From Lobosporangium transversale (taxonomy: Eukaryota), in the NCBI RefSeq assembly GCF_002105155.1, contig NW_019028990.1, positions 372,001-436,000 on the forward strand: DNA of 64,000 bases. Reading direction: 5' to 3'. A model generated the notes under the pieces. That model was given only the letters and a program-made list of their open reading frames with translations. It made no database searches and was not told where the DNA came from. Below, piece after piece: positions 21,436-64,000 of this stretch (positions are counted from its first letter, which is position 1; the number at the start of each line of letters is the position of its first letter). The translations under genes and the position numbers were made by a program.

Positions 21436-21885
21436 ATGCTCGCCATTAAACTCGCGCGCCACGGCGTTAAAAACACTCCCTTCTTCCATATTGTGGTTCT
21501 GCAAAGTCGTTCCAAGCCTACGAGGAAACCCATTGAGCAACTCGGCACTTTCAACCCGATTCCCGATAAGGATGGTACCAAAGCAGTAACACTGAACTTT
21601 GAACGCGCAAAGTACTGGATCAGTGTCGGAGCAAAGCCAAGCGATACAGTTGCCCGTATTCTCACCAAGGTACTGTGATGGAGCATTCTCTTATAATGCT
21701 TGCGCTTATATCCTGGGGTACAACACTTTACAATAGAAGGAAACGCTTGATTTTATCAGACTAACACTTTTTCACTCCACACTGCCCATAACACATAGGC
21801 CGATATCATCCCGCCAAAGCCCAGGCCTGGCATGCCCAATCCTAGCAACTCTACCCCTATTAGACCACCTACTCAATCTGCATAA
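21436..21885 (+). CDS. MRPS16: Mitochondrial ribosomal protein S16 (bS16m), 2 exons (21436-21669, 21799-21885)
   Basis: MLAIKLARHG...PFFHIVV...KPIEQLGTFNPIP...LNFERAKYWISVGAKPSDTVARIL. Confidence 0.92.
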
Positions 21886-22322
21886 TTTCATCATAGAACA
21901 TCCGTACATTACACTTGTTTTTTTTTTCCCCTTTTTTTGTTTTTTGTTCATTCTTTCACTTGTATTAAAATCAATTGCTATCACAACGGATCAACGGATG
22001 CTCAAAGGAAGAAACAGAATCTGGATATTATTAATTTCTAAAGGAATTGACGTGATCTTGAATAAGTGGTGGAGGGCATCCCTTCCAAAGGCTCATGATA
22101 TCTTGAAGTTGATCCAGGGGTATGATGGTTGTACCATTTTTGGAAAGTACAGACTTGGTTGGTGGCTTCTAAAGGGCTTCTTGGATCAAGATTATTTGTA
22201 TCGTCTGTTGCCTATGTGAATGTTTTATCAGTGAGCACTATTGAAACAGATGAATGCTGCATTTGCCTCTTTCGCACGGCTCTCGTTTCTCTACAAGAAA
22301 CTAAAGTATTTGCGAGCGTTTT

Positions 22323-22441
22323 TGTAGGCTCGTCACCAGCCAGCCTGAGGACGAAGTTCACGTGCACATGCACGTACTCAAAGGCAAATGTGGCTTGCTC
22401 TTGCAGACACTTCTCTCTCAGGCTGGGGACCAAGCTTGACA
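22323..22441. repeat. 119-bp imperfect terminal hairpin (TGT...ACA) at the element end
   Basis: tgtaggctcgtcaccagc(cagc)ctgaggacgaagt pairs imperfectly with acttctctctcaggctggggaccaagcttgaca. Perfect core ccagcctgag/ctcaggctgg. Internal acgtgca-ca-tgcacgt palindrome. Confidence 0.7.
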
Positions 22442-22834
22442 TTTTGGCTGGAGGTCTCTTTTTTTAAATTTGAAAAAGTTTCCAAGTCGAAAACACGCCG
22501 CAGGAAAGGCTCTTTTTTTCTGCCATTCTCGCTGCAGAAAATGGCTTTTTTTTTTTCAAAGTCCAGACTAGGATATTGATTTGATCGAGAACGAACGAGG
22601 AATGAGAAAAAAGAATGGTATATTTCGCGTAAAAAGAGTCATCATGCTCTAATTAATCAATTATTTACCTTTAATTAAGATAGTGTGCTTAATAAGGTCA
22701 GAGAGATGGAAACGAGGATTGTGGAGTAGATCAAATGTTAGAATAATAAAATGTTAGAATAATAGATGGCAATGCAGATGATGGAAACAAGAGACGATTG
22801 GTAAAAATGAGGCTAGTGATTTGGGTGTGTGTGT

Positions 22835-23390
22835 AGGACCGTTTAAAAAGCGCCATCCGTTTGTCAAAAGGGCAAGTGGATAGTGATGGCTTCGTTCATA
22901 AAGGATGAACGATTGTAAAGGATACTCAATAGATGTGGTATTTTCATTACAGACAAAATTCCTTTCACTTGATTGACATTCGACTCTTTTCTTCATGCTT
23001 GAACCTCGGCGATCCTCCTGCATATGCGGTATTGATGCGAGTTTTTATGACATGCTGTCCCGCATGTTTTAAATATCTAGGTGTTGCCTTAACACTCTGA
23101 TCGTTGTTGATAACGAGCTCCTAAACTTTAAGCTTGACGTGTATGTCGCCTGGGACCATGGAACGGAGGAATGTGATATTGTCACTTTTCTCCGAGGTTT
23201 GATCGGTTTCTCTTCAAGCATGATCCAGTAAATATTATCAATCATCTCCTTGAATGATGCTTGCTTGATCGGATGCTCCTCTGATGTGACCTGGAATGGC
23301 TTGTCGGGCCCCAACACACAACTTATGGGTGGAAAGATAGGAATAGACAATAGAAACAACTTGCCACTTGCTTGAGAAAATTCTGATGCA
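22835..23390 (-). pseudogene. Decayed 3' fragment (REase part plus 3' flank) of a paralogue of the CRN gene
   Basis: GPDKPFQVTSEEHPIKQASFKEMID versus intact GPNELFQVTVSEKHPIKQAPFKEMID. Nucleotide similarity to ~25200-25830 continues past the stop codon. Frameshifted. Confidence 0.85.
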
Positions 23391-23894
23391 GCTGCGGCAA
23401 TCCGCTTGGTGTGGTCACTTCTCCTTGCTCAGGTTTATTGAATAGCGATATTTTAATTTATCTATTAGTGCTATATTACAAAACTGTGTCTGTGCCATTG
23501 TCATAAACAATGGCGAGTAAAAAGAAGTAAAAGAAGCGATCGCTACTTTTTCCTTGGTCCCTTATCCCTGCTTGACCTATTGGGCTTGTCGTCCTCCGCT
23601 TGCACTTTTTCTTTTATTTGATCCGCTGGGTTTGCTCAGCTCTTCCTTATTTTCCATAGCTGTAGCTTTATCGACAATTCACTTGATGTCCTCCTTGCCT
23701 GTGGTTCTTTGGGCTTGCTTCCTTCTCCCTCATCCCCCACAACTCGGGTCAATTCTGACTTCTTGAAGGACTCCCTTGCACTTTCAAGGAAGTTCAACAA
23801 GCTAATATTGAGTACGTCGTTTCTATTCGTTTGTCTTTGATGACAGGGGCTTCTTTGACTTTAGCTACCGAATAATCGTCCTGTTCGTGATAAG

Positions 23895-24775
23895 ACAACA
23901 TGATAAGGCAGCGTGATAAGTAAGGCCTAAACAACAGCAACAAGGATATGCCATTCGAGCAAAAGCCGAGAGAAGACGGTGATGAGAGGTGTTCTTTGAT
24001 GCAATTATGGCAAGTTGTATTGTGGGCATCCTTAATTCTTGACCTTATCGCCGATTTTTGATTGTACGGAACCAGGATAATATTTACCCTCCGATTCTAG
24101 TACAAAGACGATATCTGGTCCAGATGGGTTCTCTTTTGGAAACAAAAAAGAGCGAGATTAACTTGGATTCATGTATTGAGTCTTTGTTACAGTGAGTATC
24201 CAAGAATTCGTTCATTGTTATAATTCTGGAAGATTGAAATTAAACAAAGCGGGACTGAAATACTCAAAATGTGTGCCCTTTGTGCCAGACGTAGGGGAGT
24301 CATCGAGAACTTCTCGATATTCCTTGAAGCTTTGCCAGTTCTCTTAACCCAAGCAGGATCATAAATACAAAAGCCTATCCCGCAAGGAACTATGCAAATT
24401 CGTGCTAAATTCTCTGATAAACCCTCCAATCCATGAAAGAATGCTGATAATATTGGTCGCATAGTGTCGTCGTTATTAATAAACTGGTATTTAGCCTCCC
24501 CTCCCCACATCCTGCGCCTCGTTCAAAACAACCAAAAACATAGAGTTGCTTTGATGCCGCTCCGAAAGGACCCTGATTAGATTGTCGAACCAATCTTGCA
24601 GGAGCTTGTCAAGGCAATTAAAGCCAACTCCACCAAGCAATTCTGCTACTTTTGTGAAGAACGCTAGGAATAAATCTGTCCTGGATGGAACCGAGTTTCC
24701 TCAATGGACTTCTCCAAGGACCTGTGGACACACTTGCAATAGCATCCATTGGCTAGGCGTCATTCTACCTTCGGA
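23895..24775 (-). pseudogene. Decayed second-family CRN-type NTPase+REase cassette (mirror of 31920-32800)
   Basis: Reverse complement of 31920-32800. See that entry. Confidence 0.65.
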
Positions 24776-25363
24776 CAAGTAAAAAGGGTAAATTGGCCGA
24801 ACATACAACTAATATGATCTCATTGGCCACAGGTTGCCATCCCGTGCACGCGCACCATGGGGCTAAAACGACATTTATGTCTTTAGAGTGGAGCTGTCAT
24901 CCTAGCTCCCGGTAAACGTTTTGGCGCCCTGGATGATGATAATTGATAGGTCTTTCGCAAGTGGCAAGCATCCAGATGACAAAGCATACGAGAAAGGATA
25001 ATTTCCTATGCCAGCTGTCCTGGTGATAATAATATGGTTTTGGGTCTCATCATCAGACTCTCACTGGGTTCTCCACAGGATTCTTCATCTCTATCCGTTT
25101 TTACAAAACTCTTTGATAATAGTATCACAAAATCCTGCCTTTTCTTGCACACAAGATCGCATAATGATCACAGCTTTATAGTTCTAAATGCCCCAGTAGA
25201 AGGGAGGACGGATTAAACCGCTCTATTTATTCGTCTAGAAGGTAAGTGGATAATGATGGCTTCATTCATAAAGAATGAACCATTGTAAAAATTTCTCAAG
25301 GAATGGGTATAATGCTTTTTTTTAAAAAAAGACAAAATTTCATCCACTTGATTGGTATTCGAT

Positions 25364-27880
25364 TTAATTCTTCAGATTCGTACCGGCTGATCCTCCTGAA
25401 TATGCAGCTTCGATGTCGATTTTTATGACACGCTGTCTTACATGTTTTAAGCATTTATATGGCTTCTTGACGACCGTATTTCTGGCGGTAAGAAAGTTCT
25501 GAACTTTAAAATCGTTATATACGTCTCCTGGCACCACAAAATAGAGGAAAATATCATCACTTCCCTTCGACTTTGATCGGTCTCCCTTCGACTTTGATCG
25601 GTCTCCCTTCGACTTTGATCGGTCTCCCTTCGACTTTGATTGGTCTCCCTTCAAGCAGGGTCCAGTAATACAATCAATCATCTCCTTGAATGGTGCTTGC
25701 TTGATCGGATGCTTCTCTGATACTGTGACCTGAAATAGCTCGTTGGGTCCCAATGCAAAATCAATGCACGGAAATTTAGAATGTTCTGGTACAAACAACT
25801 TGCCAGCTGCTTGAGTGAGCCCTGATAATTCCTCTGAAGTCCGGATAAACACCTCTTCTGGATTTGCTGGAAAATCAAGAACTCCTGTTTCACCTGACTG
25901 GAGATCCCTAAAGGGAAATCTAATATCACCATGTCGAAATAAGCGATGAGCATAGATTTCAAACAGTGGGCCTTTAGCTATATCCTCTCCGCCTATGACA
26001 AGTCTCGCCAACACATCGACCCAAGTGTTATCTTTTATTTTGTCCATAATCTGTGATTCGACCCAACGAGATGCCCATACCAGGTGGAAGTGGAGGTGGT
26101 CAGAAGTAGGAACTCTATGGAGTAAACGACTAAATCCACTCGCATCTTTTCCTCGTGCAAAGAGCCTTAGAAGATTTGCTGGTTTCTTGAGTGTACTAAT
26201 GGCATCATTGACGCGGAATAACGCAGCTTCTTTAGCACGCTCAGTATTATTTTGATTTTTGGATAGTACATTGGCTGGACACTGTAGAACCTGTCTTGGC
26301 ACGCCCCCCAAGTAGTAAAAAAGCTCCTCCAAAAATGCTTCACTCACTACATGAAAAAACTTTACATTGGTTCTACATTCCTTAAGCTCAGCCAGACTCC
26401 AGAGTGACATATGATAGTAGTTATCTGGTGTATTTTCCTTGGTGAGTTCATCGTAATGCCCATAGAGAGTTCTTGGCGATGCTGAAAATATCGTCCTGGC
26501 TTTACCTGGTTGAGGATTTTTACCACTATCAACTAAATACCACGTTTCACGTTGGTCAAGGAAATCTTTGAAATCTACTCTCTCCCCATAACGTTGGCAA
26601 GTTGTTCCTCCATAAACATAACAACTGGTATGCTGCTCCTCTTGGAAAATAATAATCGGTGGATTTTCCTCATCGTGTTCGGCAAGGAGGCGGATGGCAA
26701 AATAGACCAAAAAGGCTGACTTCCCAATTCCAGGCGTTCCAGTGATAAAGAGGCGGTTCAAACGAGGTACTTCATGACGGGTACTTAATCCGGATGTAAT
26801 ATGGTCATAAAGCTCTTTATACTCATCTCTGATATAAAGATGCCTTGTTCCGGCAACAGGGAAGACACAACCCTCAGGGGCAGTCAATATTTTGGAATCC
26901 TTGATACCACCAGAATTTCGGAGCTCGCGAGCCACGCTAATAATGCTGTAGTAAATACTATCTACTGCTGTCTTCCCCATGTACGAAAGCAGCTTGACCC
27001 TCTCTTTCGAGTTTAGACGCGAGATGGCAGGCCTACCATCCACTATCCCTTTCGTTACAAGTCCTGCTTCTGTAATCGCGTCCATAAGAGTATCTCTATT
27101 CATGCTTGGACGAGCTTTTTTAGAGGGTGACTCTGATAAAGGAGATAGAGTGATCAAAGTCAATATTTTTGATTTATTGCACATCACTCTAAAATGATCA
27201 ATAACCAGATTCTCGGCCAAAAGCACTCACCAGAATCTCCATCTTGTTTTCTTTTCTGACCTAAGTATCAAAAGCGAATAATGAGAAAGAACGTTGAGTT
27301 ATCAAGACACAAACCAAATGGTGATATTATGCACATGGCCGTTTAAGATACAAACCAAGCTTCATCAGCTGAAAATATCAACAATCAGTCCATCAAGAGC
27401 CAAGGATATACCTCGCTGTGGTGGCTTGACAAAAACATGGATAGTTTCCTTTGGAAGTTCAGAGTTGAATATGTCCCCAAGCTCCCTTGATGCGACTGTA
27501 AGAGCCTCTTTTGACTCGATTTCTGACTCAAAGATGGCCTCGCCTTTGTCAGGGATGGAGACCTTGTAGAGGGTGAGATCTTTGGACTTAATGCTTGGAT
27601 CCACAGTAATATTGGGGTAGATTGCTTGCTTGAGCATCCCGACCGATTTATCGCAGAAAATCTCTACTGGGAACGACGTTGCTTCTCCCTCGACAACGCA
27701 GTTCAGCTGCAGCAGTGGGATGGCGCGCTTTTTTCGTTGTGGGCGCTGGTTTACTCTTTTTCGTTTATTGAGTATGGAGGCATCCTCAGGCTTATTTGCA
27801 GTCATTTTTATTTGTGCTTGGCTCTCTGTGGAATCATTTGCAGCCATGTTTTTTTGTGTTGAGCTCCTTGTGGTGGCCAT
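25364..27880 (-). CDS. Crinkler (CRN) family protein: ubiquitin-like header + P-loop NTPase + REase-fold nuclease. 3 exons (27880-27412, 27260-27231, 27132-25364), ~755 aa
   Basis: Header LQLNCVVEGEATSFPVEI...LKQAI...LTLYKVSIP...TIHVFVKPP. Walker A GTPGIGKS, Walker B-like WYLVDS, GGVPR, GPLFE, PCIDF...FQVTVSEKHPIK. Canonical splice sites join the 171-aa and 620-aa ORFs. Confidence 0.88.
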
Positions 27881-28237
27881 TGAAAATTAAGATGAGTGTG
27901 GTTGAAATGCAGGGAGAATGATGGGTAAATAGGCGAAGGTATATTCTATACTCTTTCACCCGTGGTCACGGTATGGAAACAATAATGAAAAATGTGTAAG
28001 GCAAAAAAAAAAAGAAGGAAAGGAAAAGAAAGGCAATAAATGAAGGCTTGGAATGAATAAAAGAGGTAAGTGGTGAAATATGAAAAAAGTGAAAAAAAAG
28101 GTAAAGGAGAGTGCGAAAATGAAGTGAAGCAAAGGAAAGAAGGACTTTATTTCAAGGTTAGGCGACGTGTGAGAAAATATTTTTTTCAAATCAGCCACGT
28201 GCCATTTTCTGGGTCATTGTGACGTAACAATCTTTAG

Positions 28238-28415
28238 CAGAGAGTCAAGCTTGTCACTCTTTTTGGTTAGTCCTTTTCAATTATAAGAATTTTGTTAAGT
28301 AAACCATTTATATTTGAAAGAGTCTAGCCAAAAAGAGCGACAAGCTTGACCCTCTGGCGCAAAGAACTCATTTCTCAGTCTCGTCACCAGCTTGAGGACG
28401 AAGTTCATGTGCACA
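28238..28415. repeat. Branched palindrome centre: 119-bp hairpin (28238-28356, 21-nt loop) plus 59-bp hairpin (28357-28415) related to the element terminus
   Basis: cagagagtcaagcttgtcactctttttggttag... pairs with ...ctagccaaaaagagcgacaagcttgaccctctg. 28380-28415 ctcgtcaccagcttgaggacgaagttcatgtgcaca matches 22329-22368. Confidence 0.8.
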
Positions 28416-28814
28416 CTAAAGATTGTCACGTCACAATGACCCAGAAAATGGCACGTGGCTGATTTGAAAAAAATATTTTCTCACACGTCGCCTAACCTTG
28501 AAATAAAGTCCTTCTTTCCTTTGCTTCACTTCATTTTTGCACTCTCTCCCTCTTCCTTTGCCCTTTTTTTTTCACTTTTTTCATATTTCACCCCAGTTTT
28601 GCTCCCATCAATTTTGCTCTTTTATTTATTCCAAGCCTTCATCTATTGCCTTTCCTTTCTTTTCCTTTCCTTTCCTTTTTTTTTTTTTTTGCCTTACACA
28701 TTTTTCATTTTTGTTTCCATACCGTGACCACAAGTGTGAAAGAGTATAGAATATACCTTTGCCTATTTACCCATCATTCTCCCTGCATTTCAACCACACT
28801 CATCTTAATTTTCA

Positions 28815-31331
28815 ATGGCCACCACAAGGAGCTCAACACAAAAAAACATGGCTGCAAATGATTCCACAGAGAGCCAAGCACAAAAAAAAATGACTGCAAA
28901 TAAGCCTGAGGATGCCTCCATACTCAATAAACGAAAAAGAGTAAACCAGCACCCACAACGAAAAAAGCGCGCCATCCCACTGCTACTGCTGAACTGCGTT
29001 GTCGAGGGAGAAGCAACGTCGTTCCCAGTAGAGATTTTCTGCGATAAATCGGTCGGGATGCTCAAGCAAGCAATCTACCCCAATATTACTGTGGATCCAA
29101 GCATTAAGTCCAAAGATCTCACCCTCTACAAGGTCTCCATCCCTGACAAAGGCGAGGCCATCTTTGAGTCAGAAATCGAGTCAAAAGAGGCTCTTACAGT
29201 CGCATCAAGGGAGCTTGGGGACATATTCAACTCTGAACTTCCAAAGGAAACTATCCATGTTTTTGTCAAGCCACCACAGCGAGGTATATCCTTGGCTCTT
29301 GATGGACTGATTGTTGATATTTTCAGCTGATGAAGCTTGGTTTGTATCTTAAACGGCCATGTGCATAATATCACCATTTGGTTTGTGTCTTGATAACTCA
29401 ACGTTCTTTCTCATTATTCGCTTTTGATACTTAGGTCAGAAAAGAAAACAAGATGGAGATTCTGGTGAGTGCTTTTGGCCGAGAATCTGGTTATTGATCA
29501 TTTTAGAGTGATGTGCAATAAATCAAAAATATTGACTTTGATCACTCTATCTCCTTTATCAGAGTCACCCTCTAAAAAAGCTCGTCCAAGCATGAATAGA
29601 GATACTCTTATGGACGCGATTACAGAAGCAGGACTTGTAACGAAAGGGATAGTGGATGGTAGGCCTGCCATCTCGCGTCTAAACTCGAAAGAGAGGGTCA
29701 AGCTGCTTTCGTACATGGGGAAGACAGCAGTAGATAGTATTTACTACAGCATTATTAGCGTGGCTCGCGAGCTCCGAAATTCTGGTGGTATCAAGGATTC
29801 CAAAATATTGACTGCCCCTGAGGGTTGTGTCTTCCCTGTTGCCGGAACAAGGCATCTTTATATCAGAGATGAGTATAAAGAGCTTTATGACCATATTACA
29901 TCCGGATTAAGTACCCGTCATGAAGTACCTCGTTTGAACCGCCTCTTTATCACTGGAACGCCTGGAATTGGGAAGTCAGCCTTTTTGGTCTATTTTGCCA
30001 TCCGCCTCCTTGCCGAACACGATGAGGAAAATCCACCGATTATTATTTTCCAAGAGGAGCAGCATACCAGTTGTTATGTTTATGGAGGAACAACTTGCCA
30101 ACGTTATGGGGAGAGAGTAGATTTCAAAGATTTCCTTGACCAACGTGAAACGTGGTATTTAGTTGATAGTGGTAAAAATCCTCAACCAGGTAAAGCCAGG
30201 ACGATATTTTCAGCATCGCCAAGAACTCTCTATGGGCATTACGATGAACTCACCAAGGAAAATACACCAGATAACTACTATCATATGTCACTCTGGAGTC
30301 TGGCTGAGCTTAAGGAATGTAGAACCAATGTAAAGTTTTTTCATGTAGTGAGTGAAGCATTTTTGGAGGAGCTTTTTTACTACTTGGGGGGCGTGCCAAG
30401 ACAGGTTCTACAGTGTCCAGCCAATGTACTATCCAAAAATCAAAATAATACTGAGCGTGCTAAAGAAGCTGCGTTATTCCGCGTCAATGATGCCATTAGT
30501 ACACTCAAGAAACCAGCAAATCTTCTAAGGCTCTTTGCACGAGGAAAAGATGCGAGTGGATTTAGTCGTTTACTCCATAGAGTTCCTACTTCTGACCACC
30601 TCCACTTCCACCTGGTATGGGCATCTCGTTGGGTCGAATCACAGATTATGGACAAAATAAAAGATAACACTTGGGTCGATGTGTTGGCGAGACTTGTCAT
30701 AGGCGGAGAGGATATAGCTAAAGGCCCACTGTTTGAAATCTATGCTCATCGCTTATTTCGACATGGTGATATTAGATTTCCCTTTAGGGATCTCCAGTCA
30801 GGTGAAACAGGAGTTCTTGATTTTCCAGCAAATCCAGAAGAGGTGTTTATCCGGACTTCAGAGGAATTATCAGGGCTCACTCAAGCAGCTGGCAAGTTGT
30901 TTGTACCAGAACATTCTAAATTTCCGTGCATTGATTTTGCATTGGGACCCAACGAGCTATTTCAGGTCACAGTATCAGAGAAGCATCCGATCAAGCAAGC
31001 ACCATTCAAGGAGATGATTGATTGTATTACTGGACCCTGCTTGAAGGGAGACCAATCAAAGTCGAAGGGAGACCGATCAAAGTCGAAGGGAGACCGATCA
31101 AAGTCGAAGGGAGACCGATCAAAGTCGAAGGGAAGTGATGATATTTTCCTCTATTTTGTGGTGCCAGGAGACGTATATAACGATTTTAAAGTTCAGAACT
31201 TTCTTACCGCCAGAAATACGGTCGTCAAGAAGCCATATAAATGCTTAAAACATGTAAGACAGCGTGTCATAAAAATCGACATCGAAGCTGCATATTCAGG
31301 AGGATCAGCCGGTACGAATCTGAAGAATTAA
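28815..31331 (+). CDS. Crinkler (CRN) family protein, second copy. 3 exons (28815-29283, 29435-29464, 29563-31331), ~755 aa
   Basis: Same motifs as the mirror copy, with 3 amino-acid differences near the N-terminus. Introns gtatat..ttag and gtgagt..tcag, both phase 1. The spliced frame reads KPPQR-GQKRKQDGDS-ESPSKKAR. Confidence 0.88.
31043..31133 (+). repeat. 21-bp coding minisatellite (gaagggagaccgatcaaagtc x ~4.3; KGDRSKS repeats). Mirror at 25562-25652.
   Basis: Directly visible tandem copies. Confidence 0.95.
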
Positions 31332-31919
31332 ATCGAATACCAATCAAGTGGATGAAATTTTGTCTTTTTTTAAAAAAAAGCATTATACCCATTCCTTGAG
31401 AAATTTTTACAATGGTTCATTCTTTATGAATGAAGCCATCATTATCCACTTACCTTCTAGACGAATAAATAGAGCGGTTTAATCCGTCCTCCCTTCTACT
31501 GGGGCATTTAGAACTATAAAGCTGTGATCATTATGCGATCTTGTGTGCAAGAAAAGGCAGGATTTTGTGATACTATTATCAAAGAGTTTTGTAAAAACGG
31601 ATAGAGATGAAGAATCCTGTGGAGAACCCAGTGAGAGTCTGATGATGAGACCCAAAACCATATTATTATCACCAGGACAGCTGGCATAGGAAATTATCCT
31701 TTCTCGTATGCTTTGTCATCTGGATGCTTGCCACTTGCGAAAGACCTATCAATTATCATCATCCAGGGCGCCAAAACGTTTACCGGGAGCTAGGATGACA
31801 GCTCCACTCTAAAGACATAAATGTCGTTTTAGCCCCATGGTGCGCGTGCACGGGATGGCAACCTGTGGCCAATGAGATCATATTAGTTGTATGTTCGGCC
31901 AATTTACCCTTTTTACTTG

Positions 31920-32800
31920 TCCGAAGGTAGAATGACGCCTAGCCAATGGATGCTATTGCAAGTGTGTCCACAGGTCCTTGGAGAAGTCCATTGAGGAAAC
32001 TCGGTTCCATCCAGGACAGATTTATTCCTAGCGTTCTTCACAAAAGTAGCAGAATTGCTTGGTGGAGTTGGCTTTAATTGCCTTGACAAGCTCCTGCAAG
32101 ATTGGTTCGACAATCTAATCAGGGTCCTTTCGGAGCGGCATCAAAGCAACTCTATGTTTTTGGTTGTTTTGAACGAGGCGCAGGATGTGGGGAGGGGAGG
32201 CTAAATACCAGTTTATTAATAACGACGACACTATGCGACCAATATTATCAGCATTCTTTCATGGATTGGAGGGTTTATCAGAGAATTTAGCACGAATTTG
32301 CATAGTTCCTTGCGGGATAGGCTTTTGTATTTATGATCCTGCTTGGGTTAAGAGAACTGGCAAAGCTTCAAGGAATATCGAGAAGTTCTCGATGACTCCC
32401 CTACGTCTGGCACAAAGGGCACACATTTTGAGTATTTCAGTCCCGCTTTGTTTAATTTCAATCTTCCAGAATTATAACAATGAACGAATTCTTGGATACT
32501 CACTGTAACAAAGACTCAATACATGAATCCAAGTTAATCTCGCTCTTTTTTGTTTCCAAAAGAGAACCCATCTGGACCAGATATCGTCTTTGTACTAGAA
32601 TCGGAGGGTAAATATTATCCTGGTTCCGTACAATCAAAAATCGGCGATAAGGTCAAGAATTAAGGATGCCCACAATACAACTTGCCATAATTGCATCAAA
32701 GAACACCTCTCATCACCGTCTTCTCTCGGCTTTTGCTCGAATGGCATATCCTTGTTGCTGTTGTTTAGGCCTTACTTATCACGCTGCCTTATCATGTTGT
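31920..32800 (+). pseudogene. Decayed second-family CRN-type NTPase+REase cassette
   Basis: Across frames: SQWMLLQVCPQV, FLVVLNEAQ (Walker-B-like), RPILSAFFHGL...ICIVPCGIG, then FLFPKENPSGPDIVFVLE...VQSK (PD-(D/E)xK-like). Stops and frameshifts. Family assignment is from my recollection of Mortierella CRN C-termini. Confidence 0.65.
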
Positions 32801-33304
32801 CTTATCACGAACAGGACGATTATTCGGTAGCTAAAGTCAAAGAAGCCCCTGTCATCAAAGACAAACGAATAGAAACGACGTACTCAATATTAGCTTGTTG
32901 AACTTCCTTGAAAGTGCAAGGGAGTCCTTCAAGAAGTCAGAATTGACCCGAGTTGTGGGGGATGAGGGAGAAGGAAGCAAGCCCAAAGAACCACAGGCAA
33001 GGAGGACATCAAGTGAATTGTCGATAAAGCTACAGCTATGGAAAATAAGGAAGAGCTGAGCAAACCCAGCGGATCAAATAAAAGAAAAAGTGCAAGCGGA
33101 GGACGACAAGCCCAATAGGTCAAGCAGGGATAAGGGACCAAGGAAAAAGTAGCGATCGCTTCTTTTACTTCTTTTTACTCGCCATTGTTTATGACAATGG
33201 CACAGACACAGTTTTGTAATATAGCACTAATAGATAAATTAAAATATCGCTATTCAATAAACCTGAGCAAGGAGAAGTGACCACACCAAGCGGATTGCCG
33301 CAGC

Positions 33305-33744
33305 TGCATCAGAATTTTCTCAAGCAAGTGGCAAGTTGTTTCTATTGTCTATTCCTATCTTTCCACCCATAAGTTGTGTGTTGGGGCCCGACAAGCCATT
33401 CCAGGTCACATCAGAGGAGCATCCGATCAAGCAAGCATCATTCAAGGAGATGATTGATAATATTTACTGGATCATGCTTGAAGAGAAACCGATCAAACCT
33501 CGGAGAAAAGTGACAATATCACATTCCTCCGTTCCATGGTCCCAGGCGACATACACGTCAAGCTTAAAGTTTAGGAGCTCGTTATCAACAACGATCAGAG
33601 TGTTAAGGCAACACCTAGATATTTAAAACATGCGGGACAGCATGTCATAAAAACTCGCATCAATACCGCATATGCAGGAGGATCGCCGAGGTTCAAGCAT
33701 GAAGAAAAGAGTCGAATGTCAATCAAGTGAAAGGAATTTTGTCT
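33305..33744 (+). pseudogene. Decayed 3' fragment of CRN paralogue (mirror of 22951-23390)
   Basis: GPDKPFQVTSEEHPIKQASFKEMID. Similar to ~30860-31365. Confidence 0.85.
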
Positions 33745-35030: not shown

Positions 35031-36015
35031 TAACTGTTATTGCTTTTTTCTTATATTCTAAATAGAAAACTGAAATGGGTCTTTTCGTCAATAAAATGAA
35101 AACTCATGAAAATTCAGAAGTATCTAGGATGGCCAAGGATATTGTCAAGAGTTGGAAGGCACAGGTTATGAAGGACACTCCATCATCGACAGCTTCCACT
35201 GCTTCAACCAAGTCCGAAAGCACTACATCATCATCAAAGCCCAAAGTAGATACAAAGCCTTCGCCCGCTCAAATTCAAAATCCATCAAGGGAGGGATCTT
35301 CAACAGCAAGCTCACCAAGGACACCGACGGATACACCCAGAAGTCGTACAGTTCGAACGGATGGTATGCGTATTAAAACGACAGGAGATGATGTTCGTGA
35401 TAAGTGTATTGAGATGCTTTATGAAGCTCTCGGATTCAATTCCAATGCAGGTAAAAAAAAAAAAAAAAAAAAAGAATGTTTCACGAACAGAATATCCGAA
35501 GGTTCTTGGAACTCTCCTTATTATTATGATTGCTCTCTCATTTTAAGTATACTTTACTTTTTTACTTATTAATGTGCATAGAGTCAGAACGTTTGCTTTC
35601 AAAGGCCACTAGTATTGAGGCGACTGTGTTCAAGAAGCTCTCAGTAGATAATAAGCCTAGCAAAGACTATAAGTCTAAGATCCGAACCTTCTTTATGAAC
35701 TTGAAAGATAAGAACAATCCAAAGTTGCGTGAAGCTGTGGTAGATGGAGATGTGGCAGTGGAGGACTTTTGTGAATATACGACTCAGGATATGGCTTCTG
35801 CTGAGGCCAAGGCGCGTGATCGAGCGATCGAAATAGAAAATATGAAGAATGCCAAAGGAGCAGAGGAACAACAGGCAGAGACGGACATGTTCAAGTGTGG
35901 CAAGTGCAAGGGAAGGAAGACTCGTTATTATCAGATGCAAACTCGGTCAGCTGATGAACCGATGACAACTTTTGTGACATGTATTAATTGTGGTAACCGC
36001 TGGAAGTTTTCATAA
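34506..36015 (+). CDS. DST1: Transcription elongation factor TFIIS, 4 exons
   Basis: N-terminal domain (KTEMGLFVNK...IVKSWK), central domain (VRDKCIEML, YKSKIRTFFMNLKDKNNPKLR), and Zn ribbon CGKC...QMQTRSADEPMTTFVTCINCGNRWKFS. Confidence 0.96.
34936..34995 (+). repeat. (gaaagaaagaag)n purine-rich tandem repeat followed by polyA in a TFIIS intron
   Basis: Direct observation. Confidence 0.85.
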
Positions 36016-51756: not shown

Positions 51757-53613
51757 ATGCTTGGTGGTATTTACCCCTCCTCACGAAGTGTCCTCTCGCC
51801 ATCAATAGCTCTGAAACTCTTTACTATCTACACCGAGAACGCTCGCGACTATGGCAAAGAGATCGCCTTGGAACTATGTCTGGATGCAGTTGCCGTGCTA
51901 TCTCGAATCCATCGGTCTGTGAGGAAGGCTCTTATCACTTCAACTCGCAATGAGGACAAAACGCTATGCCAAAACGTTGCCACAGCTTACTACGACCTTG
52001 CTCGGTCATTTGAGCGTCTGGGTCAGCCAGATGAAGCTCGAAACAATGACCGAAAAGCAGAAAAGTGGGGATACGTTCAAGGAAGGAACGTTGTCCGCCC
52101 AAGGCCACCATCAATTAGTAGCTCTATCAATGACCTCAACGACAAAGACAGCATCAGCTACAACGATACTAAAAGGCGAGAAAGTACCTGTATTTTTAAC
52201 AGCGAACCTGAAAAGCCGACTAAAATAGTAGAACCCACCACAACAGACGGCACCACAATTATTCCAATACATATATTTAGTCGCGATGTAGCTCCTACGG
52301 CCATCAGATATAGCTTGCCAGATGCGGGTACTCGTCTGAATGATATCGGTCAGCTTGTGTATTGTCTCAGTTTGCTTCCTGGTGCGCCTATCCCTACTAC
52401 TGAACTTAGTGGTGAGGAACGAGAATGGTCTTTGGCCATGTCCAAGGACCGAAGCGAGCAAGAGCGGCTATACAACTTGGCTTCAAATGTGATTACAATG
52501 TTCATCAGTGATGGGATCAAGACCGAGGCTACTGTTACTGAAGTTGTGTCTCTAGCTCCAGTTCTTAGTCGTGATCAATTCAAAGCATTGCTCGCGGCTT
52601 TTACCAACGACATTCAGAAGAGCACCGTTTTGGATACCTATTTATTGGAAGGATTGGGTCAGTTGATGCAGCATGCTCCACTCGGCTACCTTGACTCGGA
52701 TGATATTATCAAAATTCTCGATACTCTCACTTTCTGCTTAAAAGAAGTTAATAGTCAATCCGATGACTACCTTCATCATCTATCTACTGCAGTGTCACGA
52801 GCCCTTGATGTAATGGTTGATAATCAAGTCAAAGGTTTAAAACCAGAGCAACTCCATGAGCCATTAGTTTCATATTTGAAGGGTCTAGAAGATAGTTCAG
52901 ATCCCCATCTAATGTATCATGCAGCCTATGCTTTCCAGGCACTTCAATATATCCCAGACGATGGAACAACGGTACAAGCAATGCTTCGACGAAGATCATC
53001 TGTGTTCCGAGGGACAGTTGGGATAGTGAGTGCGGTCGATGATTTTGATGTGTATGCCTTTTTGGATGAATTAAGTATTATCCAGAAAGAGCTTCCGATG
53101 GTGACAGATGTTATTAATTTGAGTCTGCATGTTTATAATGGGGCAGCATCGCTGTATGAGAGTAAAGAGACTATCAGACAGTGTATACAAGAAGGACTCA
53201 GTTTGAGTCAAAAGACAGCATGGTATCCAGCATTGCGTGGGGCTGATGCTCTAATCCAGACTGGCGAGTTCACCAAATTCAAGACTTTTGTGTGTGAGGT
53301 ACCTTGTCGAAGAGAGCCATCCTTCCTGTGGGGGCTATGTCAACGATTGGGGCAGATTGCAGCTGATACTCAATGGCCTACAGATGCCCGACAGGATGCA
53401 GTCGCATTCCTTGGTGAGATCTACAAGAATGACAACGATTGGGGCCATTATGTCCACATTAAGCAATGGATCCTTGCAATATTGAAGAGGTTGATGTGGT
53501 TGTCAAAAGAGAGTCTGCTGGGTGAGTAGAGAAGATGGCTTTAGCTTTGAAAAAAATTTACCCCGTTGTGTGAGAAGTCAGCTAATGATAGTGCATTGTG
53601 ATCCTCCAATTTT

Positions 53614-53651
<38 letters not shown>

Positions 53652-56600
53652 CTGAAAAGTTTTTTGTGGAGGATCTTACTAAGAATGGGGATGCTAACAA
53701 GCAGCAGCTATTTAGTGATTATTTTAAGGATCCTGAGGTTCGACATCCCGTCGTTATCGCACTCCCCCCTTCTACATCTCTATCATTACTCGACCGCGTC
53801 CAAAAGGAGCCTGATATCGAGAATAACCTGCGCCAGCTCAAGAGACAACGAATGCGGAGTAGAGATGACCAGAGCTTTTACATTCCACAGTTTTCTCGAG
53901 GCTCTGCTCGTTCCAAGAATGAAGGCGCATGCTTGCTGATGGACGAGGTAAAGGAATTTCTGAATGGCGATCAAAAAGTGCTACTCGTGCAAGGCACTTC
54001 AGGAGCAGGAAAATCAACATTCAGTCGTACACTAGAGTACAATCTGTGGGAAGCATACCAAAACAAGAACGATAGGATCCCACTCTACATCGATTTACCG
54101 AGCATTGAAAACCCAAATCGAGGTTTGGTCACAAAGCTGCTGCGAAGGTATGGATTCACAGAGGCCCAGATCACTGAGCTGAGAATGACTCGATCATTCA
54201 TCTTGATCTGTGATGGGTATGATGAATGCAGGCAGCACAACAACTTGTATGTCACCAATCAACTGAACCAACCTGGTGAATGGATGGCTCAGATGATCAT
54301 CACCTGCCGCAGTGAGTATCTTCGATCAGACAGCCGAGATTACTTTCAGCCTATGGCCCGAAAGCGCCAAGCAGGCACTTCATTGTTCCAAGAGGTTGTA
54401 ATTGTACCATTCTCGGATGATCAGATCAATAATTATATCAAACAATATGTGGCCATCATGAATCCACCATGGCCAGTCAAAGAGTATCAGCGTGTATTCG
54501 AGGTGGTGCCCGGCCTACGGAAGCTTGTGGAGAATCCTTTTTTCCTATCGCTGTCACTTGAAGTGCTGCCGCGGATGATAGGCCCGAATCAAGACGTCTC
54601 CAAGACAGAAGTCAAGTGTATATCATTTTATGACCAATTCGTGGAGTTGTGGCTGGAGCGAGGCAAGAAGCGAGTAGGCGATTCAATAGAGCCAGAGGAT
54701 AGGAAGATGTTCCAGAAATTGTCGGACGAAGGATTTGAACAGAATGGGATTAGGTACTTGACAAGCTTGGCCGTAGCCATCTATAGACATCAACGTGGCG
54801 ATCCTGTGGTGGACTACTCTTCGTTCAAGCACAAGGGGACATGGAAGGAAGAGTTCTTTAGCAAAGAGAATGGAGCATCCCTTCTAAGAGAGGCATCCCC
54901 CTTGAGTCGCGTGGGCACTCAGGCTCGCTTTATTCATCAATCTATCCTGGAGTACAGTCTGGTGCGAGCGATCTTTGAGCCGCAGCAAGTGATAAACGCT
55001 TTTGCAAGTGGTAGGGGAACAGCATTGACTCCAAACCCTCGTCGGCAGAGTATCAGTTCAGTATACAGCTTCGATTCTGAGAGCAAGGAGGCCAATCCAT
55101 TCCAGGCTGATGAGAACTCTCCATTGGTATGGAAGAACTTTGTGAACGATCCATTTTTCTCACAGTTTCTGGAAGACCGAGCCCGATTGGAACCGCTGTT
55201 CAGACAGCAACTCTATGGCTATATAGAACTCTCGAAGGAGGATAAAAAGTGGCGGACAGCAGCAGCCAATGCGATAACGATCCTGGTTCGAGCAGGCGAG
55301 TCATTTCTTGGAGCAGACCTGAGAGGCATTCAAATTCCAGGAGCGGACCTGAGCGGCGGTATGTTTGGAGGTACCAAGTTACGAGGAGCAGACCTTCGAA
55401 AGGTCAATCTGCAACAAGCTTGGTTACGAGATGCTGACATGAGGGGCGCTCGGGCAGAAGGGATACAGTTTGGTGAATGGCCCTTTTTTACAGAAAGTGC
55501 TAAAGTAAGGACAGGAACATATTCTCCTGATGGCGAGATGCTCGCCATAGCTATCGATGATGGCACAATCAATGTCTACTATACATTGACATGGGAGAAG
55601 CTTCACACTTTAAAGGGTGTTACTGGGTCCATACTTGAATTTTTGCCCGATAACAAACATCTCGTTTGCTTGAGTTCTCATCAAACGGTGGAAATTTGGA
55701 ATGCAATATTAGGCCAATCAGTAAAAGTGATGTATGGCCATAGCGGAGCTATCCATTGTATGGGGTACTCACCAGATGGGACCCAGGTTGCCTCTTCCAG
55801 CGACGATGGCTCAGTTCGAGTATGGAATGCACTGTCTGGTATTTTAATATATGAGCTGAAGGAGCACACTGGCGCTGTATTCAGTTTGATGTATTCACCT
55901 GATGGGAGACAGATTGCAACTGGAGGTAAAGACAAGACCATAAGGCTGTGGGAAACATTATTAGGACAGCCGATTCGGACACTACAGGACCTTAAATATG
56001 AGGTTTACAAGATTGCGTATTCACCTAATAGCCAGGAAATCATTTCTTATGCTCGTAAAGACTACTCGGTAGATGTATGGGATGTCGGGTCGGGCCAAAG
56101 AAGATGGACCTTGGTGCATACTGGTCATGTCGAAGGTGCTCAATATTCGCCTAGCGGGGATTATGTCGCTTCATTCGCCGGTGCGGTGGCGATCCAGTGG
56201 GATATGCACACAGGGGAAGCTATTCATACCTTTGATAGGCACCCCAGTTCGATCACCGATCTAAAATATTCGCCAAATGGGGAAGAGATAGCTACCTGCA
56301 GCAAGGATGGTATAGTGCGGTTATGGGATGCGCAATCGGGACAACTAATAAGCACTCTTCGTGGCCACTCTGGTGTGATTAGCAGTTTGGTGTATTCACC
56401 AAGCAGTCAGCAAATTGCATCGTTTGGTGATGACGGGATGGTGCGGTTATGGAATACACAGCTAAAGCAGACTTGTCCGGACCAGAACAGACATACGAGA
56501 GCGATTAACTGTATCAGAATATCGCCAGATGGGCGGTACGTTGCTTCCTCTAGCTACGATGGCACAATTCGCGTGTGGAATGCACGGACAGGACAGTTTC

Positions 56601-57877
56601 TTCATGTTTTGCAGGATATAAGATCAGCAAACGACATCAAGTATTCGGCTGATGGTCAGTTGATTGGTTCTTGCCATACCTCCTCGTTTTTGCGCCTTTG
56701 GAATAGTCAATCAGGTCAAGTCGCCCATACCATAGAATGGGAAGAAGCACCACTCGATGGATGTTGGGCCATGGATTTCTCACCCGTGGATCATAGAATT
56801 GCATGTGGACATGCATGTGGGAAAGTGAGTGTATGGGATACGAAAACAGGGAATTGTATACGCATTTTACAGAGCCCGAAACTAAAGCCAGGCAAAGACG
56901 TGTTCCGTGTGCTATATTCACCCGATGGCCGTAAAATCGCTTCATGGGAGGTAAATGGCAGAATCAGAGTCTGGTCAGCGGAATCATGGGACCTTTTGTG
57001 TGAATTCCTGAGTCCAAGATCGTGTGGCCCTGCAATGGCGTTCTCGCCTAACAGCGAAAGACTAGCATTTTTTCATGATGACATTAAGCTACGAATATGC
57101 GAGTTAAAGTCGGGAGAAGTCTATTGCGAAATACCGGTTTATGACACTCCAATAGCGATAATCTACTCTTCGTGTGGCCTACAGGTGGCTATTGGAACCG
57201 AAGAAGGGTCAATAAGCCTGGTGGATACGGAAGCAAAAGTAATTACGCATACGCTTGAAGGACATACCAGCCTTATCACCTGCATGGTTTATTCTCCTGA
57301 TGAGCAGTACATCGCCTCTGGCAATTATGACAGGACATTACGACTGTGGAATACAGAAACAGGTCAATGCTTGTATACTATCTCACTCGAGATCGGATTT
57401 GTTAGCGTAATTTTATGGTACGTCTCCGAAGAGGGTTACTTCCTGTTGGTGGGGTGCGATGATTCTTCTCTTGAGATGTATCAGCTTAGGAAAGTGGATG
57501 GTCAACTTCAGCATCACTTGAAGTGGGGCACGAGGCAAAGGGCTCTTAATGTTAGCAACCTGTGTATCTTCGATATGATTGGATTGAGTGAATCTATTAA
57601 ACAGCTCCTGCTGCAGCGCGGAGCAATAGTTGACCCAACACGACGCTCGACGCCCGAAGAAGAAGATAGCTGGGTTAGTACGGTTAGATCAACGGAATCC
57701 AAGGCCAAGTTATATTTGCGCAAAAAAGAACTCAAGTCTAAAGCTACAGAATCAAAACCTGGATCGAGTAATGAACAGCGTCTCGTTAACCTAGTATGCA
57801 AAGGATGCGATGTGATACCAACGGTTGTCTGCGGTTGTACTACCAAAACTACCAAAACTACCAAAACTACCGGATAG
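51757..57877 (+). CDS. NLR-like protein: helical/ARM-like N-terminus + NACHT + pentapeptide repeats + WD40. 2 exons (51757-53521, 53652-57877), ~1996 aa
   Basis: Walker A GTSGAGKS, Walker B FILICDGYDE, ITCRSEYL, FIHQSILEY, AAANAITIL, GADLRGIQIPGADLSGG pentapeptides, many GH...YSPDG...WD repeats. Confidence 0.92.
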
Positions 57878-62710: not shown

Positions 62711-64000
62711 TGTAGGCTCGTCACCAGCCAGCCTGAGGACGAAGTTCACGTGCACATGCACGTACTCAAAGGCAAATGTGGCTTGCTCTTGCAGACACTT
62801 CTCTCTCAGGCTGGGGACCAAGCTTGACATTTTGGCTGGAGGTCTCTTTTTTTAAATTTGAAAAAGTTTCCAAGTCGAAAACACGCCGCAGGAAAGGCTC
62901 TTTTTTTCTGCCATTCTCGCTGCAGAAAATGGCTTTTTTTTTTTTTTCAAAGTCCAGACTAGGATATTGATTTGATCGAGAACGAACGAGGAATGAGAAA
63001 AAAGAATGGTATATTTCGCGTAAAAAGAGTCATCATGCTCTAATTAATCAATTATTTACCTTTAATTAAGATAGTGTGCTTAATAAGGTCAGAGAGATGG
63101 AAACGAGGATTGTGGAGTAGATCAAATGTTAGAATAATAAAATGTTAGAATAATAGATGGCAATGCAGATGATGGAAACAAGAGACGATTGGTAAAAATG
63201 AGGCTAGTGATTTGGGTGTGTGTGTAGGACCGTTTAAAAAGCGCCATCCGTTTGTCAAAAGGGCAAGTGGATAGTGATGGCTTCGTTCATAAAGGATGAA
63301 CGATTGTAAAGGATACTCAATAGATGTGGTATTTTCATTACAGACAAAATTCCTTTCACTTGATTGACATTCGACTCTTTTCTTCATGCTTGAACCTCGG
63401 CGATCCTCCTGCATATGCGGTATTGATGCGAGTTTTTATGACATGCTGTCCCGCATGTTTTAAATATCTAGGTGTTGCCTTAACACTCTGATCGTTGTTG
63501 ATAACGAGCTCCTAAACTTTAAGCTTGACGTGTATGTCGCCTGGGACCATGGAACGGAGGAATGTGATATTGTCACTTTTCTCCGAGGTTTGATCGGTTT
63601 CTCTTCAAGCATGATCCAGTAAACATTATCAATCATCTCCTTGAATGATGCTTGCTTGATCGGATGCTCCTCTGATGTGACCTGGAATGGCTTGTCGGGC
63701 CCCAACACACAACTTATGGATGGAAAGATAGGAATAGACAATAGAAACAACTTGCCACTTGCTTGAGAAAATTCTGATGCAGCTGCGGCAATCCGCTTGG
63801 TGTGCTCACTTCTCCTTGCTCAGGTTTATTGAATAGCGATATTTTAATTTATCTATTAGTGCTATATTACAAAACTGTGTCTGTGCCATTGTCATAAACA
63901 ATGGCGAGTAAAAAGAAGTAAAAGAAGCGATCGCTACTTTTTCCTTGGTCCCTTATCCCCGCTTGACCTATTGGGCTTGTCGTCCTCCGCTTGCACTTTT
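62711..64000 (-). mobile_element. Putative CRN-carrying element, copy C (same orientation as A, runs off the window)
   Basis: Matches 22323-~23610 with about 4 substitutions and a T-run 3 nt longer, by eye. Upstream flank unrelated. Confidence 0.75.
63226..63781 (-). pseudogene. Decayed CRN 3' fragment in copy C
   Basis: ORF 63460-63750 is nearly identical to 23069-23359. Confidence 0.85.

Follow-up and report, generated by a model that had tools for sequence, protein, structure and literature searches.

The question raised by this locus of the fungus Lobosporangium transversale is how two copies of a Crinkler/RHS-type (CRN) gene came to lie head to head in the arms of a palindrome of 10.8 kb. 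We analysed a window of 64,000 nucleotides (contig NW_019028990.1, positions 372,001 to 436,000, forward strand) together with evidence from outside it, namely contigs of sequencing runs coded X1, X2, X6 and X7, protein accessions and metagenome loci. Run X8 was left out as the single-copy flank is uncovered there. A first-pass annotation of the same letters had suggested for the palindrome a dimer primed from a terminal hairpin. We report that its arms are copies of a multi-copy element of ~6 kb, whose cargo is one intact, spliced gene of the Crinkler/RHS type plus a second, decayed copy, and that the palindrome is probably a one-off rearrangement of this CRN-carrying repeat family and no new replication system. 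The explanation we favour, with moderate confidence, is that one variant of the element inserted into the end of another in opposite orientation, and that the outer 4.76 kb were later copied from arm to arm.

The palindrome as described in the first-pass annotation is present in the sequence: positions 22951-28237 align with the reverse complement of 28416-33744 at 98.9% identity over 5,329 columns (blastn), and the two CRN genes are divergent in the arms as proposed (Pfam Crinkler, PF20147, E 4e-16). The central loop of 21 nt, however, holds only in part, as the nominal unpaired middle does measure about 21 nt (28287-28307) but the perfect blocks are 1,280 nt apart (27708-28987), so that the symmetry was overstated. 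The outer block of the left arm (22951-27707, minus strand) is identical to 28988-33744 without a single difference in 4,757 nt. All differences between the arms are central, and the annotation was right in calling the arms inexact mirrors there: the inner 530 nt contain 14 substitutions and 8 indel runs of 2-14 nt, which gives a marked contrast in substitutions between inner and outer parts (14/530 versus 0/4,757, Fisher p 9e-15). This diverged zone consists of the heads of the two copies. The head of copy A (27708-28237, minus strand), with promoter, 5' untranslated region and first codons, has diverged from the head of copy B at 28416-28987, and a 59-nt piece (28357-28415) without a mirror partner makes the centre asymmetric. 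A perfect palindrome is expected to be unstable, and the imperfect middle of 1.3 kb would make this one less so. Between the first open reading frames of the two CRN copies four codons differ, three of them with a changed residue, all in the diverged head zone (28808-28988 and 27707-27887).

Three copies of the element can be recognized in the window. Copy A (22323-28356, minus strand) is apparently full-length with ~6.0 kb; it comprises the left arm and a 628-nt end not shared with the right arm, and has a sharp end in common with copy C. Its right boundary is placed by inference, at either 28356 or 28415. Copy B, the right arm (28416-33744, plus strand), ends internally, 628 nt short of the element tail and without an end motif at 33744. 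No target duplication is found between the outer flanks in the window, a comparison limited by this truncation, and no empty insertion site was seen. Copy C (62711-64000, minus strand) is the tail of a third copy that runs off the window end. It matches 22323-23609 at 99.5% over 1,290 nt, with four substitutions, a 3-nt homopolymer difference and different flanks, and copies A and B agree at all four substitution sites where copy C differs. The absence of differences between A and B (0/4,757) thus deviates from the comparison of A with C (4/659; Fisher p 2e-4), and the probability of zero A-B differences is still 4e-4 if the A-C rate is taken at its lower 95% confidence limit. The heads of A and B, on the other hand, differ more than A and C do. 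Contig depth rises from ~112 (X1) and ~10 (X6) in the flank to thousands (X1) and hundreds (X6) inside the element, with many variant letters; these depths are summed over contigs, so they show a multi-copy family and give no copy number, and the contig records were filtered, so that allele shares give no count of head types. No transposase or replication gene (Rep, helicase, polymerase) was found in the arms, only the CRN gene and the decayed CRN copy. The element appears to be non-autonomous, with its mover probably encoded elsewhere. Copy C starts ~520 nt upstream of a minus-strand Sel1-repeat gene.

The supposed 21-nt loop is the middle (28287-28307) of a 119-nt imperfect hairpin at 28238-28356 (CAGAG...CTCTG; -31 kcal/mol, z about -10 versus 200 dinucleotide shuffles), and can itself partly self-pair. 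Eight records are listed for each of X1, X6 and X7, and hairpin pieces of 60-100 nt, from either side of the hairpin, occur in 4, 6 and 7 of them, respectively. The contigs bearing them are 0.6-4.8 kb long and have single-copy depth (X1 records 1, 2, 3 and 5; X6 records 18-20 and 22-24; X7 records 25-31). The whole hairpin stands in the middle of one X2 contig (record 9, 1,503 nt, depth 170) between unrelated DNA, and in this one case no target duplication is evident in the 30 letters on each side. Its presence at further single-copy loci, in one case complete, shows the hairpin to be a dispersed terminal module and not a fold-back junction. The solo hairpin in X2, which by guess is an RNA run, might be a mini-element without target duplication inside a transcript. 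Elements of the hAT type have CAG-starting ends and make an 8-bp target duplication; a hAT-type miniature inverted-repeat element was rejected for the 119-nt hairpin, since no duplication surrounds it in the window or in X2 record 9.

The opposite end of copy A, the element tail (22323-22480, minus strand), begins with end motif M at 22323-22368, which overlaps a longer hairpin at 22338-22427; at ~22422-22480 it repeats half of the central hairpin's arm, with the palindromic core CAAGCTTG. The fold of 22323-22430 reaches z -3.4, while motif M alone is weak (z 0.4). The similarity between the hairpin arm and 22422-22480, inverted relative to the element ends, has a score that was reached by 2 of 2,000 shuffles. 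Because the hairpin arm recurs near the tail, the two ends of copy A share their building modules.

Related motifs are found in the one-sided 59-nt piece (28357-28415, plus strand), which is composed of a weak, diverged inverted end motif (28357-28378) and a segment M' (28377-28415). M' is a direct copy of tail motif M (84% over 43 nt, E 1e-5); the resemblance of 28357-28380 to the reversed M is weak, with 58 of 2,000 shuffles as good. Other contigs begin M' after unrelated DNA or run it into tail-like sequence, so that M' is an element end. In three contigs (two in X1, one in X6) the hairpin is missing and an element head is followed directly by 28357. The head-to-head joint of copies A and B therefore likely lies inside 28357-28415. 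There is also a joint of head-to-tail appearance with a depth of 440 in X1, and a loose contig end at 28424. No contig of the four runs lies on 28190-28219, where head A joins the hairpin, but such holes prove nothing; 28490-28504 is likewise empty in X6 and X7 despite an exact X1 contig there.

By analogy, these ends would work most like those of Helentron/HLE2 elements, though we do not file the element as a member. Helentron/HLE2 elements are described as having subterminal inverted motifs (subTIRs) of 11-18 nt whose core is palindromic; one of their ends carries a palindrome and the opposite one a stem-loop. The stem-loop lies 8-35 nt and the subTIR 38-60 nt from the 3' end, and insertion is into TT without target-site duplication (PMC4067079, PMC11417382). 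The element resembles them in its subterminal inverted repeats with the core CAAGCTTG at both ends, here imperfect and longer than 11-18 nt, and in the 28238-28356 hairpin as the candidate 5'-end palindrome (z about -10), which elsewhere is joined to other DNA at single-copy depth. Extra end motifs inside composites, a captured gene and, as far as the truncated pair and the one solo hairpin show, the lack of a visible target duplication are likewise reminiscent of Helentron/HINE/DINE-1 and Helitron2 elements (PMC4067079, PMC11417382, PMC5148889). It differs in that the 119-nt terminal palindrome also stands alone, and in the head-to-head pair with identical arms. Ginger elements, which have TGTNR at both ends of their terminal inverted repeats and a 4-bp duplication (PMC2836005), were considered and rejected: the tail starts with TGTAG in copies A and C, but 28415 inward reads TGTGC, tail variants in contigs are without TGT, and no duplication was found.

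The following course of events could have led to the palindrome. A non-autonomous element would have been moved by a transposase in trans, most likely a Helentron/HLE2-type rolling-circle enzyme, as suggested by the palindrome at one end, the inverted arm and stem-loop at the other, the absence of a target duplication and the hints of head-to-tail joints. Self-insertion would then have created an imperfect inverted repeat with its joint within 28357-28415; for fungal Helitron2-type elements self-insertion, including that in opposite orientation, has been proposed (PMC5148889). Subsequently, this repeat may have paired within the molecule and started synthesis with arm A as template, by fold-back or template switch, with the right flank being rejoined at 33744. 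Such priming and a switch back to the flank would account for both the exact outer copy and the internal cut at 33744, and diverged inverted repeats are known to fold back in single-stranded DNA of yeast (PMC10164571). Alternatively, gene conversion could have erased older differences, with a separate truncation of arm B. A one-off fold-back or strand-invasion repair is a possible origin of the identity of the outer arms. Compared with A and C, A and B are more alike in their bodies and less alike in their heads; a single copying event that starts from the hairpin cannot produce this pattern, whereas two steps can. Similar to inverted duplications that arise by fold-back at imperfect inverted repeats (PMC10164571; compare ODIRA, PMC4689423), a short or diverged inverted repeat stands at the centre and the exact copy further out; the seed here is a pair of transposon heads, however, and the product is a stable interstitial palindrome of 10.8 kb without a dicentric or a triplication.

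Other explanations have to be weighed against this two-step reading. The first-pass proposal of a dimer primed from a terminal hairpin is not supported, as a single fold-back at the hairpin predicts mirror arms up to the hairpin, and it is there that the arms are least alike (p 9e-15, see above). We also regard its broader form, the integrated dimer of a hairpin-ended replicon formed by rolling-hairpin replication, as very improbable. A strong hairpin near the axis and outer arms that are exact copies speak in its favor, but the divergence is concentrated at the hairpin, 59 nt are one-sided, the hairpin is found at other loci of chromosomal depth, once alone, and a replication gene (Rep, resolvase, polymerase) was not found in the arms with their CRN gene and decayed CRN copy. 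The dimer might instead be the normal unit of the family, similar to a foldback element whose 6-kb arms terminate in the tail motif, and this copy would have lost 628 nt at the right. We consider this rather unlikely. It would agree with the summed depth at 28357-28380, which looks multi-copy (~430-530 in X6 versus 10 for single copy), and the right-arm-type head joined to 28357 without the hairpin would be a second centre if it ran through M' into another head. A second head type explains the hairpin-less contigs equally well, though, joints of head-to-tail appearance exist too (depth 440 in X1; 28424), and summed depths are no copy numbers. Independent neighbouring insertions that were never homogenised are an improbable solution; here the recent donor of copy B would have shared its body with A but had another head, and B would have been truncated on insertion. 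Rolling-circle elements often insert in nested or truncated form (PMC5148889) and A, B and C form one close subfamily; still, a donor identical over 4,757 nt is needed when the only sibling in view differs at 4 of 659 positions (p 2e-4), and a chimeric head is required as well. Finally, the NTPase-nuclease of the CRN protein could itself act on hairpin ends, making a self-moving "Crinkler transposon" in which the hairpin also travels alone and head-to-head pairs are regular. This idea seems decidedly improbable to us. In its favor, CRN is the only intact gene in the multi-copy unit and no partner transposase was seen, but L001, the one of 19 relative loci with long flanks, shows none of the end motifs.

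An assembly artefact, with only one real copy and a second arm or centre that stems from a jump between near-identical copies, or with an identity caused by polishing, is unlikely but retains some weight. Close siblings exist in this multi-copy family, none of the listed contigs bridges the centre or the right junction, and a collapsed consensus would also yield perfect identity over 4.76 kb. A missed-adapter read, however, gives two views of one molecule and cannot yield two head types, here separated by 14 substitutions and indels of up to 14 nt, and two short adapter strings are absent from 27001-30000. In agreement with the first-pass annotation, which took the central asymmetry as evidence against a read chimera, the short-read contigs contain the right arm's allele at mirror site 27810 as well as matches to 28520-28594. 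Copy C has alleles of its own. X2 record 11 crosses the left junction (22322/22323), with 339 letters on one side of it and 87 on the other; flank contigs of X1 and X6 enter the element by 30 letters, one below the bridging rule. The flanks contain MRPS16 (21436-21890) on the left and TFIIS (35075-36015) on the right, where a TFIIS fragment is 100% identical to an L. transversale protein. Accession numbers of both genes were available for 16 other species labels, and in three of these the genes are close, with gaps of 6 in Mortierella sp. NVP85, 7 in Benniella sp. and 11 in one assembly of Dissophora ornata; in Entomortierella parvispora they are 56 accession numbers apart on a contig of equal length. 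A consecutive L. transversale MRPS16-TFIIS pair was left uncounted since it may not be independent of the window. Taken together, the palindrome is present in the assembly and probably real, with junction support from the left side. That the flanks are halves of one interrupted gene found no support; 17 fragments were without a Pfam match above the cut-off.

Several observations weigh against our interpretation of locus, ends and mechanism. Contig bridging is limited to the left junction, and no listed contig spans the whole centre. Homogenisation by assembly polishing may have contributed to the identity of the arms; copy C nevertheless retains its own variants. The flank genes are not close in 12 of the 16 relatives, mostly fragmented assemblies, and are far apart in a second D. 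ornata assembly. The linked relatives have 5-10 genes between MRPS16 and TFIIS where there is none here besides the element, so the interval has been rearranged locally or has lost genes in this lineage. Regarding the ends, copies A and C have the inverted arm ~100 nt inside the tail end, where 38-60 nt would be expected, though a common tail variant that skips 52 nt (joint 22373-22426; depth 1,339 in X1 and 99.5 in X6) would put the subTIR at ~55 nt. The terminal stem-loop alone is weak (z 0.4), and a steady TT target is absent: the tail flanks end in TTTT in A and AAAA in C, and those of the hairpin differ between contigs. The data, furthermore, fit a template switch and gene conversion alike.

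The CRN gene of arm A (25364-27880, minus strand) has introns at ~27261-27411 and 27133-27230, and that of arm B (28815-31331, plus strand) at 29284-29434 and 29465-29562, with 744-755 codons and no internal stop. Intron-skipping joints in X2 contigs fit the GT-AG introns that give this uninterrupted frame; X2 contigs pool the whole family, so that expression of this particular locus is not implied. One X2 joint suggests an intron in the 5' untranslated region over the first ATG, in which case the second ATG (28848) may be the start. The decayed CRN-like copy (23010-25207 in arm A, minus strand; mirror 31488-33685 in arm B) contains stops and frame changes and matches the first CRN in two frames (tblastn, 38-56% identity). 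The same run-on sequence after the CRN gene is seen in P0001, from another L. transversale assembly.

The encoded protein starts with a ubiquitin-like Crinkler header (PF20147, 60 bits versus a cut-off of 24.6) and its P-loop, GTPGIGKS, is kept across 18 sequences. Its Atlas neighbours are CRN and RHS clusters (score 0.93-0.97), RHSP was matched weakly in 2 of 18 members, and the closest CRN relatives come from Mortierellaceae. The predicted model (predicted local distance difference test 75) suggests that the C-terminal domain is of the alpha/beta type; its conserved E, D and Q positions form a pattern that may fit a restriction-endonuclease fold. A search by sequence found no solved relative. 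A 21-nt tandem repeat of ~4 copies (25562-25652 and 31043-31133) in the C-terminal domain encodes a KSKGDRS run that is absent or replaced in relatives, and contigs carry small indels adjacent to it, at 25551. Three CRN relatives of Linnemannia elongata (P0005, P0009, P0019) have the same contig size of 2,138,968 nt and might form a local cluster.

The domain set as such is of a known type. Crinkler header, P-loop NTPase and C-terminal domain are shared with the Mortierellaceae relatives, and CR (Crinkler-RHS) proteins are known to combine an NTPase with a restriction-endonuclease C-terminus (Zhang 2016, as summarised in PMC5289972). There is nothing unusual in the CRN protein, whose nuclease fold is putative. 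Phytophthora infestans has CRN genes in tail-to-head arrays that are tied to Helitrons by genomic association (Haas 2009, as summarised in PMC5289972). In both cases CRN genes are multiplied as repeats and tied, here tentatively, to rolling-circle elements; the arrays of the oomycete pathogen are tail-to-head, whereas here a head-to-head pair and a bounded element are found in a fungus of the Mortierellaceae. The AACRNL genes of fish are Crinkler-like cargo between hAT/mariner ends (PMC12957317) and likewise a case of a non-pathogen Crinkler-like gene spreading as transposon cargo, with an ADP-ribosyltransferase C-terminal domain, other ends and in another kingdom. A published description of the CRN element was not found in the Crinkler, Helitron, Lobosporangium and Mortierella literature, Repbase and subscription journals being outside this search. 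Scans of metagenome, genome and viral contigs for the end motifs gave 0 matches. Among the CRN loci of relatives (n=19) long flanks are found only at L001, blastn matches are confined to CRN-coding parts, and the core word of the end motifs is absent from the four closest relative loci checked.

The element represents a bounded, recently active vehicle for the expansion of Crinkler genes, in a fungus outside the known pathogens. With sharp ends, sibling copies and a terminal hairpin that also stands alone, it offers a way to find and test the enzyme that mobilises it, and likewise to test the idea that CR proteins derive from transposons. As a large natural palindrome the locus probably records a two-step history, with an old imperfect core and an exact outer copy, but we regard the repeat family, for its unusual hairpin ends and its solo hairpins, as the finding of greater use. 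As a side observation from the remainder of the window, positions 51757-57877 have a layout like that of NOD-like receptors (NLR), with an ARM_5 open reading frame followed by one of 1,430 amino acids that contains a long WD40 array.

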